DNA of 32,000 nucleotides from Candidatus Hermodarchaeota archaeon (GTDB taxonomy: Archaea; Asgardarchaeota; Heimdallarchaeia; Hodarchaeales; Hodarchaeaceae): assembly GCA_048886185.1 (NCBI GenBank), contig JBHLKY010000004.1, positions 60,001-92,000 of the forward strand, given 5' to 3'. The notes below the pieces were generated by a model. That model ran no database searches. It was not told the origin of the DNA and saw nothing but the letters and a program-made list of their open reading frames with translations. The translations under genes were made by a program, and so were the position numbers. The first letter of the stretch is position 1; every line of letters begins with the position of its first letter. Below are positions 21,123-26,839 of this stretch, one piece after another.

Positions 21123-23336
21123 GTGATTAATATGAGTATGTTTAATAATTTGGAAAGTAGGGACAAGAATAATCGTGTAGAAGCAGCGAGAGCTTTAGGA
21201 AATACTCGTACCAAGGCTTCCCTTCGTGCACTACTTGAAGCAGTTGAAAGAGATGATGAAAAAGATGTACGAAAGGCAGCCATTGATTCTCTTATAAAGC
21301 TGAACGATCCTGAAGCTATTCCAATTCTTGAAAGAGTTGCTGAATATGATAGGGATCGGAGTACCAGAAATAAAGCAAAAGACGCTGCTAAATCAATTAG
21401 AGAAACAGGAGTTCCTCTTAAAGACACTGCTTTTTCTGAAGAAGATGCAGACAGAGCACGGGAGGATTATCGTGCTTTAGAAGAACACGAAGCAAAACAA
21501 GCTGGATTACATGTTAGACTAGAGGAGACTTTAAAATATAGAATAAATCAGGATAATGAGTTAGTAGACGAAAATGACTCTCCATTGGACTTCATTAAAG
21601 GGACTGGTAAAGTCAAAGTCACCAATACAGGTAAAAAAGATCGAATCTGGGGAATTGATGCATTTTTAAGGGATATTGATGAAGTTACATTCGACAGAAG
21701 TGAGGATCAAGAAGTTATTGTCTTTGGAAATTCCTTTGGAATAAAAGAATTGGATCCACAAGGATCCAAGGCGGTAACCTTTGATTTTCAGGTTGATGCT
21801 CCCCGAATTAAGATTAAAGAAGAATTTTGGGATTTGGAAAAGCCTGAATCACCTCCTACATTTTCACGAGGTACTGAAACAGGAATGCGCTTTACAATTG
21901 AACTAACAAATGATTTTGATTATAGTCTCAACAATGTGGTACTAAAAAAACATATTCCTGATCCTTCTACAATCCTTGAGAATTTTAAAACTGAAACAGG
22001 CAAATTTACTAAAGAGGGTGAGTATATTCTATGGAAAATAAAAGAGATTCCAGAAAGTGCTGCTATTAAGGCAAGTTGTGAAATGCGAGTAACCTTACCA
22101 GAGGATGTAACTGAACCATATGCAGTCGGGGACACAGTTCTTACTTATCGATGTGTTGAGAAAAGTCTTTCTGGAGTTAATTTAGAAACTATTACAGGAT
22201 CATCATCTGTATTTCAATCTATTTCACGAGATGAGCAAGAGGAGAGTCCTGGAGATTTTGATTGTAATTTTGAATTAGAAAATACCTCAGAGTTCGAGAT
22301 GGATCTTAAAGAAGTGAGAATTTATGAAGGGCCTGTTGACGAGGGAAATATCAGATTAGAATGGTTAGGTAGTGACTTTCCAGAAGAGGAACGGTCAATT
22401 GATCCAGGTGAAACCTTTTCATTGGATCCTTGGACAATTACAGTAGATGAAGACGGTGTTATTCCTCAATTTGGACGAGAACTTGACCTATCAGTCAAAT
22501 ATCTTTATGATGCTGAAATTATTGCAGAGTGTACTCTTCCAGGATACGCGTTACGATTCATGGATGTGGAAGTGTCAAAAACATTCTCACCTATTACTAT
22601 ACCGTCTTATAGACGTACTGAGGTTATGACTGAAAATATTATCCGATCTACTGGAAGTACAGATATAGAATACTTACAACTCCAAGACCGTATCCCAGAT
22701 GGTTTCGAACCTCCCACGAAAGAAGATATCACAATTTTGAAGGATGACAACAAGCTATCAGATGATGATTACACCCTAGAGGTAGCTGACAATAATCTTA
22801 TTATTACAATCGAGCGCCTTGAATACACATCCTTTGGCACATTAAAACAAGAAGAAGAAGTTTACATTAAATATCCATTTTTTGCAACAGCCGCACCTGA
22901 CCATGAGTTTATGGGAAATGTGACCATATTAGTTAATATATTTCCTCCCGTTAAACCTGTTACAGCTGAGGCTGAAGCAGGGCCAATCACCGTTTTGCAT
23001 GAACGACGAAAACTTAAAATTGGTAAAATGGTGCGATCTACTTCGAGTGAGGCTGCTAACGAGTATGAAATTGTTATTAGAGGAGAAAATGAAGGTACAG
23101 CCATTATACGAAACGTTGAAGTGAGTGATTTCTTACCTCAGGGTTTTGAGTTAGTATCCGATACAGAAGAAGATCCCCCAGTTGGATTTGAGGAACATTC
23201 ATCCGTGAAAAATGGTCGTGCTATGAAGTGGATTTATAAAGAGGTTCAACCTGGACAGAAAGTTATGATTCGTTTCAAAATCCGAGCTCCTGGTGACCAT
23301 GATCCAAAAGATGTTTATCGTATGTTGTTAGGGTAA
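21123..23336 (+). CDS. HEAT-repeat plus mu-homology-like plus tandem beta-sandwich (DUF11-like) protein; start probably ATG 21132
   Basis: About 3 PBS/HEAT repeats (RVEAARALG, VRKAAIDSL, TRNKAKDA). Beta region LHVRLEETL..GTGKVKV..NNVVLKKHIPDP..FKTETG..ILWKIKEIP..SLSGVNL. DUF11-like DRIPDGF and VSDFLPQGFELV..WIYKEVQPGQ. SD GAGGTGA before 21132. No signal peptide or TM. Confidence 0.8.
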   Translation: MINMSMFNNLESRDKNNRVEAARALGNTRTKASLRALLEAVERDDEKDVRKAAIDSLIKLNDPEAIPILERVAEYDRDRSTRNKAKDAAKSIRETGVPLKDTAFSEEDADRAREDYRALEEHEAKQAGLHVRLEETLKYRINQDNELVDENDSPLDFIKGTGKVKVTNTGKKDRIWGIDAFLRDIDEVTFDRSEDQEVIVFGNSFGIKELDPQGSKAVTFDFQVDAPRIKIKEEFWDLEKPESPPTFSRGTETGMRFTIELTNDFDYSLNNVVLKKHIPDPSTILENFKTETGKFTKEGEYILWKIKEIPESAAIKASCEMRVTLPEDVTEPYAVGDTVLTYRCVEKSLSGVNLETITGSSSVFQSISRDEQEESPGDFDCNFELENTSEFEMDLKEVRIYEGPVDEGNIRLEWLGSDFPEEERSIDPGETFSLDPWTITVDEDGVIPQFGRELDLSVKYLYDAEIIAECTLPGYALRFMDVEVSKTFSPITIPSYRRTEVMTENIIRSTGSTDIEYLQLQDRIPDGFEPPTKEDITILKDDNKLSDDDYTLEVADNNLIITIERLEYTSFGTLKQEEEVYIKYPFFATAAPDHEFMGNVTILVNIFPPVKPVTAEAEAGPITVLHERRKLKIGKMVRSTSSEAANEYEIVIRGENEGTAIIRNVEVSDFLPQGFELVSDTEEDPPVGFEEHSSVKNGRAMKWIYKEVQPGQKVMIRFKIRAPGDHDPKDVYRMLLG

Positions 23337-24165: not shown

Positions 24166-24585
24166 TTGAAAATATACTTATCTGGGGCAATTAGGGGGGG
24201 TCGTGAGTTACAGGTTAATTATGAAGCAATTAATGACTATCTACAAAGTAATGGCCACGATGTATTAACACATCATGTTGCTTCACCCAAAGTGATGAAT
24301 ATTGAAAATTCAATGTCTGATAGTGAAATCTATAGTCAAGATATTTCTTGGTTAGAAGAGTGTGATCTTTTAATTGCTGAAGTGTCAATTCCTAGTCTCG
24401 GGGTTGGGTATGAAATCTCTTATGCATTATGTCTTAATAAACCAGTTTTAGGACTTTATGAAGAAGATAGAGTCATTTCAGCAATGATCTCTGGAAATAC
24501 CTCTAATAATTTAACACTTTATTCTTATAAAAACATCTCTAATCTTCTATTTTTGATAAAGAAATATTTAGATTCATTTTCTTGA
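24166..24585 (+). CDS. 2'-deoxynucleoside 5'-monophosphate N-glycosidase (DNPH1/Rcl-like; nucleoside 2-deoxyribosyltransferase family)
   Basis: KIYLSGAIRGGR, VLTHHV, IYSQDISWLEECDLLIAEVSIPSLGVGYEI match the DNPH1/Rcl pattern, including the catalytic Tyr, Asp and Glu positions. Confidence 0.88.
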   Translation: MKIYLSGAIRGGRELQVNYEAINDYLQSNGHDVLTHHVASPKVMNIENSMSDSEIYSQDISWLEECDLLIAEVSIPSLGVGYEISYALCLNKPVLGLYEEDRVISAMISGNTSNNLTLYSYKNISNLLFLIKKYLDSFS

Positions 24586-24614
24586 TGAACATCTGTGCAA
24601 TCAATTATAATGAT

Positions 24615-26255
24615 TTAGATGTTTTTCAAAGATAAACTCAATTCATGAATGTCTCTAATTTTTCTACCTTTGCCATAAATTAGCATATCATAAGTTTTTT
24701 GAATTCTATCCCAGTTATTTTCTCTATCAAGTGCCCAATGACGTCCAATGATGGAAACAACCTTAATTTTTCCCATTTCTCTTGCTTTTAATTCAAGTTG
24801 TCTTACGTAATGGGCACCTGCTTCAGGTTTTTCACCCCGACGTCCCAACATACCATGTAAGTAAACATTAGAGATGTTATTTCTTTTAGCGAGCTCCATA
24901 AGAGCCTCAAGATACTTTATCGAGCCATGGGAACTATAAAAGCTGATAATCCCTAATAAATGTAAAGAGGTATCATTCTCCTTTGTATGATTAATTGCTT
25001 TTAAAAAGGAAGGATTTTGAAAGAATTCTCCTGTTTCAATGGCCTCAAAAATTTTAACACGATCACTTACAACACGTCTACCAATCCCCATGTGTAGATG
25101 GCCAATTTCACTATTACCTACTGTACCATCTGGCATTCCTAAGGGGATCCCTGAAGAAATAAGGGTTGTAAAAGGGAACTCAGCTTTGAGCTTATTCATA
25201 TTTGGAGTGCCAAATTCAAGAAATAAATTCCCATATGAATCAGGATTGAAACCCCAACCATCTAAGATTAAGAGAAGAACCTGATGACTAGTATATTTCT
25301 CTCCATTTATCAATAAACTCCTTCCTTCCATTTCTTGAGGCTTTTGTAATCCCATAATATCAAGAATCGTTGGTGCAACATCTATAAGGGAGCCTCCAAC
25401 CCTTATCTGTCTTTTTTTATGATCCTTAGAAACAAATAAAAATGGTACAGGATTAGAGGTATGTCCTGTGTCAATGGATCCGTCAGGGTAAAGCCAAGAT
25501 TCCGCTGCGCCATGATCAGCTGTTACAAGAACTGTGTAACCAGTTTTAATCGCTGCATCCACTATTCGTCCTAGTTGTCTGTCCACTGCTCGAATTGCTT
25601 TTCCCACAATCATTTTCTCTTCTATGTGTCCCATCACATCGCAAGGAGAAATATTCGTTACAATAAGATCATAATTTCCATCTTCCATTGCAGTAATTGT
25701 AGTATCAGCTACTTCAGCTGATTTCATTTCTGGGAATTCTGCCAAATTTTCTGTTTCATGAGATGAGATTATGATTCGATACTCATTCTTGAATTGCTTA
25801 TGTTGCTTACCATTGAAGAAATAAGTCAAGTGAATAGCTTTTTCACTCTCAACACATTTTAAAATGCGTTTTCTTTTATTACTTAAGAATTCCGTAATAC
25901 TGTTTTCCAAATTTGCTGTAGGTGGGAATGCCACGTTGACAGGTAGATCAGGATGATACTCAATCATTGTTGAAACACAGAGATTAAGCGGTACTACTGG
26001 AAAATGCTTAAAATGTTTTGCTGTGAGAGCTTGAGTTAACTCAACTTCTCGTTCACCTCTGATATTAGCAAAAATTAGAGCATCATTGGGTTTAATCCGA
26101 CCGATTGAGTTGTTTCCTTCATCAACAAGTACAAGGGGTTCAAGCTCTTCATCTCCTTCCCCTCTCTTATAGGCTTTACATATTGCTTCTGCAAGAGGAG
26201 TATCATATTTATGTGTTTTCATTATAAATCTCTCGATATTGTGATCATGATTCAT
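24615..26255 (-). CDS. gpmI: 2,3-bisphosphoglycerate-independent phosphoglycerate mutase, circularly permuted; start ATG 26255 or 26222
   Basis: All GpmI motifs are present but in permuted order: GDEELEP, NIRGER, ESEKAIH, FPEMKS, CDVMGH, TADHG, GHTSNPVP, DVAPT, EMEGRSL, and then LLILDGWG, GNSEIGH, LHLLG, GRHWALDRENNWDR. Confidence 0.9.
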   Translation of the reverse strand: MNHDHNIERFIMKTHKYDTPLAEAICKAYKRGEGDEELEPLVLVDEGNNSIGRIKPNDALIFANIRGEREVELTQALTAKHFKHFPVVPLNLCVSTMIEYHPDLPVNVAFPPTANLENSITEFLSNKRKRILKCVESEKAIHLTYFFNGKQHKQFKNEYRIIISSHETENLAEFPEMKSAEVADTTITAMEDGNYDLIVTNISPCDVMGHIEEKMIVGKAIRAVDRQLGRIVDAAIKTGYTVLVTADHGAAESWLYPDGSIDTGHTSNPVPFLFVSKDHKKRQIRVGGSLIDVAPTILDIMGLQKPQEMEGRSLLINGEKYTSHQVLLLILDGWGFNPDSYGNLFLEFGTPNMNKLKAEFPFTTLISSGIPLGMPDGTVGNSEIGHLHMGIGRRVVSDRVKIFEAIETGEFFQNPSFLKAINHTKENDTSLHLLGIISFYSSHGSIKYLEALMELAKRNNISNVYLHGMLGRRGEKPEAGAHYVRQLELKAREMGKIKVVSIIGRHWALDRENNWDRIQKTYDMLIYGKGRKIRDIHELSLSLKNI

Positions 26256-26386
26256 TCGAGTTTTCTTTGAAATTTTTGTTTTTCACAGCGGATCTTTTAT
26301 GTATTTGTTAAGATGAAATTCTAAATCGAGATTAATTATCATAATTATTTTAATTTGGTTTTAAATAAAATGGGTGAATTAAGAAA

Positions 26387-26839
26387 ATGTTGAAAATTGG
26401 TGACATCGCGCCTTCGTTCAAAACTACAACTGATTCTGGTGAGATAGTAGATTCTGAGGCATTAAAAGGCCAGAAATTTGTCCTATATTTTTATCCAAAA
26501 GATAACACCCCAGGATGCACGAAAGAGGCCTGTTCAATCAGGGATAACTACGGAGTATTCCAAAATAGCGGAATACAAGTATTTGGTGCTTCAGGGGGTA
26601 AATCACATCAAAAATTTATTGATAAATATAATCTTCCATTTCCTATTCTTCTAGATGAAAAGCTAGAATTAGCTAAGAAGTTTGGTGCTTACAAGCAAGG
26701 AAATCGTGTTTCTAGAATTACATACTTAATAGATGAGAATGGGAAAATTGAAGGTATTTTTGGAGGGAACGAAGGTGTTGACAAAGTAAACACGAGTGTA
26801 CATGCTGATCAAATCATAGAATTCTGGGAATTAAGATAA
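26387..26839 (+). CDS. bcp: Peroxiredoxin, BCP/PrxQ subfamily
   Basis: LYFYPKDNTPGCTKEAC (peroxidatic plus alpha2 resolving Cys), KYNLPFPILLD, RITYLID. Confidence 0.93.
   Translation: MLKIGDIAPSFKTTTDSGEIVDSEALKGQKFVLYFYPKDNTPGCTKEACSIRDNYGVFQNSGIQVFGASGGKSHQKFIDKYNLPFPILLDEKLELAKKFGAYKQGNRVSRITYLIDENGKIEGIFGGNEGVDKVNTSVHADQIIEFWELR

Follow-up and report, generated by a model that had tools for sequence, protein, structure and literature searches.

A textbook enzyme of glycolysis, the cofactor-independent phosphoglycerate mutase (iPGM, also GpmI or GpmM) consists of two domains, depends on their hinge-mediated closure for catalysis and is a drug target in bacteria and parasites alike. In the enzyme of B. 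stearothermophilus (structure 1EJJ), the transferase domain, which we take to comprise residues 77–310, is inserted into a phosphatase domain that presumably consists of residues 1–76 and 311–511. The transferase domain repositions the dephosphorylated substrate. Here, we analyse a gene for a circularly permuted member of the iPGM family, located in a stretch of 32,000 nucleotides (hereafter the window) from a metagenome-assembled genome (MAG) of a Candidatus Hermodarchaeota archaeon. The gene covers bases 24615–26255 of the minus strand, stop codon included, and forms a single open reading frame (ORF) without internal stops. It had been singled out from the letters of the sequence (the original prediction) as a permutant for which no description was known, and full-text literature searches indeed found no paper describing a permuted iPGM and no published name for the clade to which it belongs.

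Two further enzyme families are close enough to require comparison. The archaeal-type phosphoglycerate mutase ApgM (TIGR00306), composed of PhosphMutase and Metalloenzyme domains, shares with iPGM the superfamily of alkaline-phosphatase-type metalloenzymes and the canonical phosphoglycerate mutase (PGM) reaction, but it carries a different inserted domain and is encoded by a separate gene of the window genome (contig C21); the window protein reaches only 30.3 bits with this model (cut-off 320). Phosphopentomutase (DeoB) shares the metalloenzyme core, a phosphorylated hydroxyl side chain and two metal ions, and moves a phosphate within a sugar. Its phosphorylated side chain is a threonine instead of a serine, its cap domain is different, and the window protein is not a member, with scores of 53 bits for NF009049 (cut-off 254) and 43 bits for NF003766 (cut-off 256). 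Natural circular permutants in other enzyme families resemble the present case in that the fold is identical while the chain is rotated, with the former termini bridged by a short linker. They arise via tandem duplication and subsequent trimming of both ends, whereas no tandem-duplicated intermediate was found here among the seven long homologues inspected (644–5027 amino acids), each of which holds one copy of each half.

Chain order and fold of the permuted protein

When the two halves of the protein were compared with solved structures, both matched 1EJJ, in reversed order. Residues 21–316 correspond to 1EJJ residues 217–510 (phmmer, 193 bits) and residues 325–536 to residues 5–216 without a gap (180 bits), with an E-value of 7e-110 for the 1EJJ match and 38% identity over both halves. 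The chain break is therefore located exactly between 1EJJ residues 216 and 217. The TIGR01307 profile aligns residues 16–315 with model positions 209–504, and a profile search of the genome contigs recovered model positions 208–504 followed by positions 2–212 in one stop-free frame. The predicted exchange of the GpmI halves within one ORF is thus borne out to the base.

The first part of the protein (residues 21–316; 25308–26195, minus strand) begins in the transferase domain, of which it contains the C-terminal part, and passes through hinge 2 into the C-terminal part of the phosphatase domain. The linker NGEKYTSH (residues 317–324; 25284–25307, minus strand) comes next and connects the ancestral C-terminus to the ancestral N-terminus. 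The remaining stretch (residues 325–536; 24648–25283, minus strand) supplies the N-terminal parts of the phosphatase and transferase domains, in this order, with hinge 1 between them. The linker had been read one residue earlier as INGEKYTS (residues 316–323; 25287–25310), at a place that proved correct. Both native GpmI termini lie in the phosphatase domain, which had been given as the reason why such a joint is feasible. In all permuted homologues the linker is 8–12 residues long and variable in sequence.

As a consequence of this chain order, the phosphatase (alkaline-phosphatase-like) domain is continuous and extends over about residues 113–396 (25068–25919, minus strand), with the domain limits placed via those taken for 1EJJ; sulfatase-fold matches cover residues 114–379 of the structural model. 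The transferase domain is split. Domain nesting is therefore inverted, with a continuous phosphatase domain inside a divided transferase domain, and we regard this anatomy as practically certain. A large natural family in which the nesting is inverted while all the chemistry is kept offers a ready-made test of how connectivity affects domain closure. The original prediction had supposed that the new chain break might alter closure, but both hinge peptides are kept and nothing indicates that closure is disturbed.

Two ATG codons, at 26255 and 26222 of the minus strand, are the candidates for the translation start between 26220 and 26257, and they would yield proteins of 546 and 535 amino acids, respectively. 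Translation probably starts at the second one (Met12), because the recorded identical protein has 535 amino acids, the orthologues begin at this position and residues 1–12 are disordered in the structural model. The 11-residue extension upstream of Met12 is open only in the window gene and its nearest relative (locus L106). An A/T-rich, TATA-like stretch is present at about 26293–26300.

Profile scores place the protein in the iPGM family and at the same time record its rearrangement. The Metalloenzyme (PF01676, 181 bits) and iPGM_N (PF06415, 167 bits) domains of Pfam are both present, each split into two stretches, so that the two-domain composition of iPGM is complete. With TIGR01307 the summed score is 441 bits (cut-off 330.65), and each piece alone stayed below the cut-off in the genome search. 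The stricter iPGM model NF003897 gave 368 bits against a cut-off of 862, and the colinear canonical order of N-terminal phosphatase part, transferase insert and C-terminal phosphatase part is absent. NCBIfam holds no model dedicated to permuted iPGMs and matches the protein best with TIGR01307, split over two pieces.

Based on 55 permuted sequences, an AlphaFold2 model displays the iPGM fold, with a mean pLDDT of 93.0, a pTM of 0.88 and disorder only at residues 1–12 and 541–546. Residues 19–316 of the model align with residues 214–510 of 1EJJ (Z 22), and the root mean square deviation from the S. aureus enzyme (4NWJ) is 1.9 Å over 291 residues; solved iPGMs are by far the top structural matches. 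Foldseek and VIA-align are sequential aligners and cover one half only, about 300 residues, which also holds for the comparison with 1O98. Two clusters of the ESM Atlas, mostly from Chloroflexota, match the model at TM scores of 0.89–0.90 over 511–519 residues and, because the match spans this length, share the permuted order. Compared with the canonical enzymes (TIGR01307; 1EJJ, 1O98, 4NWJ and 5VPU), the window protein thus contains both domains, both hinge peptides, the catalytic serine and the metal ligands on a chain rotated to 217–510, linker and 5–216.

Authenticity, spread and origin of the permuted form

Contigs assembled separately from three sediment metagenome runs cover bases 24400–26500 of the window in one piece and with zero differences, at a word depth of 12–28, and thereby span the predicted junction region (25250–25350). 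These runs belong to one study that is possibly the source of the window, and they are not independent of it. A further run, from an estuary and with a small share of the sequence words, gave no contig for this region. A whole-genome search detected the two-piece arrangement in a single frame in 12 genomes of the genus, that of the window included; together with a fragment at a contig end in genome G011, the permuted gene is present in 13 of the 22 genomes. The eleven fetched orthologues are intact and 66–79% identical. Their pairwise ratios of non-synonymous to synonymous substitution rates (dN/dS) have a median of 0.108 and range from 0.08 to 0.16. Gene order is shared as well: a HEAT/MHD-like protein, an ORF of 260 amino acids, a nucleoside 2-deoxyribosyltransferase (NDT)-like gene, the permuted gene on the opposite strand, usually Bcp, and an ORF of 362 amino acids. 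Bcp adjoins the permuted gene in six of the 12 genomes, including that of the window.

The best 120 clusters at 90% identity are all colinear with the window protein over 75–98% of the query, and over at least 93% if one truncated record is set aside. The Asgard members among them are 64–79% identical to the query, and those of Syntrophales, other Deltaproteobacteria and Aminicenantes about 50%. Among 271 fetched proteins, the halves were in permuted order in 134, in canonical order in 135 and partial in two. The junctions of 18 diverse permuted members align with each other, and the window protein shares the junction and the new termini. In contigs from one genome per species, the permuted form was found in Syntrophobacterales, Chloroflexi/Anaerolineae, Thermoanaerobaculaceae, Omnitrophota, Clostridiales and Ruminococcaceae; it is carried by the cultured isolate Butyricicoccus pullicaecorum ET57 and by closed contigs of 3.2 and 4.9 Mb. 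The colinear homologues, the genus orthologues and the assemblies of the three runs all identify the protein as a natural permutant; the notion of a one-off case gives way to a large permuted family distributed over several bacterial phyla. One predicted protein, P0217 (5027 amino acids), holds a complete permuted iPGM module deep inside its chain, at residues 3859–4378.

For phylogenetic analyses, permuted sequences were rotated back, for the alignment only, and trees were calculated with 30 permuted and 71 canonical iPGM rows. The 30 permuted rows form one group nested among the canonical ones, which corresponds to one label change (SH-aLRT 89). In a second analysis, the columns near the linker and the new termini were removed and nine more permuted genes were added. 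The free quick tree of this junction-masked alignment placed two basal rows (P0127 and P0131) outside the main permuted clade. The second origin of the permutation that such a placement would imply was rejected, because a tree constrained to one permuted clade was better by 55 log-likelihood units (p-AU 0.886). A single origin is thus the best-supported interpretation.

Nine Asgard rows, the window protein among them, constitute a clade with a support of 100. This clade sits inside a larger, exclusively permuted clade (support 99; 19 rows, and 24 rows in the enlarged junction-masked tree), which also includes rows of Syntrophales, Chloroflexi, Aminicenantes and Thermoanaerobaculaceae. The canonical iPGMs that other families of this archaeal class possess are placed in different parts of the tree. 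An even sample of 301 genomes from across the phylum contained the permuted gene in the 12 genomes of the window genus and in only two others, G068 and G292, with proteins 50% and 40% identical to that of the window that fall into different permuted subclades. These two stray genes (loci L113, on contig C27 of G068, and L114, on contig C163 of G292) are either independent transfers or bacterial contigs contaminating the MAGs. The nesting of the Asgard clade inside bacterial rows, with canonical iPGMs as outgroup, indicates that an ancestor within the genus received the gene from anaerobic bacteria, a direction that we infer from this topology.

In the scenario that we propose, the permutation would be a single event that took place in bacteria and affected an enzyme with a fully canonical active site. 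The permuted lineage would later have rebuilt two loops of the substrate pocket, first to SSHG and then to GRRG, and one such bacterial gene would have entered the ancestor of part of this Hodarchaeales-like Asgard genus.

Active site, pocket loops and possible function

Active-site positions were mapped through the alignment with 1EJJ, the numbering of which is given in brackets. The first part of the window protein carries R66 and R69 (R261, R264), K139 (K336), D206 and H210 (D403, H407), D247 and H248 (D444, H445) and H265 (H462), and the second part carries D332 (D12), S382 (S62), H386 (H66), H443 (H123), R473 (R153), R505 (R185) and R511 (R191). Consequently, the phospho-accepting serine and the seven metal ligands (D12, S62, D403, H407, D444, H445, H462) are all present, as are the substrate residues His123, Arg153, Arg185, Arg191, Arg261, Arg264 and Lys336. 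The codon of Ser382, the phospho-accepting nucleophile, lies at 25110–25112 of the minus strand, where the phosphoserine had been predicted; serine occupies this position in all 30 permuted and in 70 of the 71 canonical rows. Asp12, Ser62, His66, His123, Arg185, Arg191, Arg261, Arg264, Lys336, Asp403, His407, Asp444, His445 and His462 are invariant in the 30 permuted rows, and Arg153 is found in 27 of them and in the window protein. The predicted retention of metal ligands and of the substrate Arg and Lys residues is thus a property of the family.

The pocket is remodelled in two loops, both of which had been noticed as drifted GGVHSH and DGRD motifs. Around His443 (His123), the canonical DGGVHSH is replaced by FYSSHGS (residues 439–445; 24921–24941, minus strand), and the canonical DGRD by GRRG (residues 471–474; 24834–24845, minus strand). 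The window protein therefore differs from canonical iPGMs by the loss of Asp151 (now Gly), Asp154 (Gly) and His125 (Ser) and by the gain of an arginine in place of Gly152, and it does not possess the full canonical substrate pocket with GGVHSH and DGRD. Asp151 is an aspartate in 70 and Asp154 in 66 of the 71 canonical rows; position 154 is a glycine in the window protein and in 21 of the 30 permuted rows.

The distribution of these motifs follows the tree. The basal permuted rows (P0127, P0130, P0131 and P0217) display GVHS or a near variant (AVHA in one of them) together with DGRD. An intermediate clade, which includes Butyricicoccus and Anaerolinea, contains SSHG with DGRS-like sequences, and the crown clade, which includes the window gene, contains (F/H)(Y/F)SSHG and GRRG, motifs common to 19 crown rows. 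Because the basal rows keep GVHS and DGRD, the permutation occurred on a canonical pocket that was rebuilt later, which speaks against the supposition that the pocket changed as a consequence of the chain break. The family is thus a clear case of circular permutation after which the pocket was rebuilt step by step. Crown members lost two acidic residues (Asp151, Asp154) and gained one arginine at position 152. The conservation of the new motifs looks like a new constraint and not like decay, and one may speculate that the more cationic pocket would suit a more anionic ligand.

Judged by these patterns, the window enzyme is almost surely functional. Its catalytic and metal-binding residues are kept under purifying selection, which makes catalytic activity probable, as the original prediction had also assumed. 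The chemistry would be unchanged: with an anionic phosphoester bound by the Arg/Lys/His cluster, Ser382 would be activated by two metal ions and accept the phosphoryl group of this ester, and the group would then be passed back to another oxygen (mutase) or to water (phosphatase).

The substrate has to be considered in the light of the other PGMs of this organism. The window genome encodes a cofactor-dependent phosphoglycerate mutase (dPGM, GpmA-type) on contig C9 (13467–14198; 396 bits, cut-off 81.7) and an archaeal ApgM on contig C21 (7200–8372; 419 bits, cut-off 320). Together with the permuted protein, this archaeon hence has three PGM-type enzymes that are at most distantly related to each other. 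Of the 22 genomes of the genus, 21 contain dPGM, 13 the permuted gene and eight ApgM, and all eight ApgM holders also carry the permuted gene. Since it is present in 21 of 22 genomes, dPGM is most likely the housekeeping PGM of the genus; the permuted protein is neither the sole PGM of its organism nor a near-universal one in its genus. A similar coexistence was observed in bacteria, where a canonical iPGM, ApgM or dPGM with a full score accompanies the permuted gene in nine out of ten genomes. The tenth is a MAG of unknown completeness. Counted with the window genome, another full-scoring PGM is present in ten of eleven carriers.

On balance, we lean towards the interpretation that the permuted protein is an accessory paralogue with iPGM chemistry, the substrate of which has probably shifted from plain 3-phosphoglycerate/2-phosphoglycerate (3-PG/2-PG), because the genome already has dPGM and ApgM and because the motif now found in its pocket loops is new, conserved and more cationic. 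More tentatively, the crown subgroup with SSHG and GRRG could have acquired a new activity as a phosphomutase or phosphatase for a phosphoester that bears more negative charge than 3-PG. Bisphosphorylated acid-sugars, sugar phosphates and inositol phosphates would be examples, although nothing in the window points to a link with inositol phosphate. Such an enzyme would work with HAD, histidine-phosphatase or Macro-type phosphatases in bacteria and would have been passed laterally into one Asgard genus.

Several points weigh against a shifted substrate. The residues that hold the carboxylate and the phosphate of glycerate in canonical iPGM are all kept, which fits an unchanged substrate equally well. 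Redundant PGM isozymes are common, with E. coli possessing both dPGM and iPGM, so that co-occurrence is no proof of a new function. In addition, the gene is monocistronic in the Asgard genus and has no informative neighbour there, and the associations with phosphatases come from bacterial relatives at 38–52% identity.

In the main rival explanation, the protein would be a genuine but redundant isozyme, the third 3-PG/2-PG mutase of the organism; the permutation would be functionally neutral, and the loop changes would only tune kinetics or metal use. This explanation deserves serious attention, although we consider it rather less probable than not. In its favour, the Arg/Lys/His substrate residues and the metal ligands are all kept, the summed TIGR01307 score exceeds the cut-off, and one basal permuted homologue whose GVHS and DGRD motifs are still canonical (L122:3556–6626) overlaps the end of a phosphoglucose isomerase gene by four bases. 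Because of this glycolytic setting, the basal homologue suggests that the permuted topology itself can serve glycolysis. A simple isozyme is more difficult to reconcile with the glycine at the otherwise largely conserved position 154, with two loops that show a new conserved motif in place of relaxed sequence, with the presence of two other PGM types, one of them near-universal in the genus, and with bacterial relatives that adjoin phosphatases and not glycolytic genes.

That the permuted protein has turned into a phosphatase, which hydrolyses the phosphoserine intermediate without returning the phosphate, is improbable. The phosphatase domain is fully intact, the loops with the lost residues lie in the transferase domain, to which the repositioning of the substrate is ascribed, and relatives are linked to other phosphatases; but the whole transferase domain, with five invariant arginines and His123, is under purifying selection, which is hard to explain if neither re-phosphorylation nor retention of the substrate is needed any more. 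Finally, an assembly artefact is excluded, and a decaying pseudogene can be dismissed with it, by the bridging of the gene in three run assemblies, by the chain order and gene context shared among eleven species of the genus at a dN/dS of about 0.11, by the permuted genes of the Butyricicoccus isolate and of the closed contigs, and by the lack of internal stops.

The permuted family also bears on annotation. Automatic pipelines name the permuted proteins ‘phosphoglycerate mutase’ or ‘alkaline phosphatase family protein’, and because of these names a glycolytic step may be assigned to the wrong gene when the metabolism of Asgard archaea, Syntrophales, Chloroflexi and Aminicenantes is reconstructed. 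The label ‘phosphoglycerate mutase’ in the original prediction stands as far as membership of the iPGM family is concerned; as the name of a 3-PG/2-PG mutase it goes beyond the evidence in a genome with dPGM and ApgM. If the substrate shift is true, a widespread phosphoester pathway is hidden behind this name.

Gene neighbourhoods

In the window, the permuted gene is convergent with an NDT-like gene and divergent from the Bcp peroxiredoxin gene. The NDT-like gene (window 24166–24585, plus strand) encodes a protein of 139 amino acids with a PF05014 match of 52 bits, and its end is 29 bases away from the permuted gene's stop codon; no NCBIfam model names this protein. Nine of the eleven loci fetched from the genus keep the pair; of the two remaining ones, one ends at a contig edge.

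The neighbourhoods of permuted genes in bacteria are varied, and phosphatases recur in them. Directly upstream of intermediate-clade permuted iPGMs, tandem paralogous HAD hydrolases are encoded (L019:3335–8478; L023:1–5926; L022:5176–5949). An Anaerolinea MAG has three copies, a Clostridiales MAG five and Butyricicoccus pullicaecorum one. The Anaerolinea locus contains an ApgM gene 10 bases downstream of the permuted gene. Downstream of the permuted gene, and overlapping its stop codon, three Chloroflexi-type loci contain a His_Phos_1 gene (L016:7554–8180; L117:6590–7216; L020:877–1485). The closest family of these neighbours is the MSMEG_4193 putative phosphomutase, which they match at 167 bits against a cut-off of 204, and in one of the three loci a NUDIX gene is located upstream. 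Two Syntrophales genomes contain a Macro-domain gene directly downstream of the permuted gene (L095:9612–10142; L015:7816–8340), with 223 bits for the O-acetyl-ADP-ribose deacetylase model (cut-off 200). Long frames that precede the permuted gene in L015 (1038 amino acids) and L018 (700 amino acids) were considered as fusion partners and rejected, because they contain no extra domain and represent GC-rich read-through.

Also in the window, a HEAT-repeat protein of 737 amino acids with a C-terminal DUF11 is encoded on the plus strand (21123–23336). Its aligned part is 66–87% identical in ten other genomes of the genus, where the gene is always located two genes from the permuted iPGM. The protein has a weak match to PF00928, the mu-homology domain of adaptor complexes (28.6 bits, cut-off 31.6), and is a candidate for a eukaryote-like trafficking protein.

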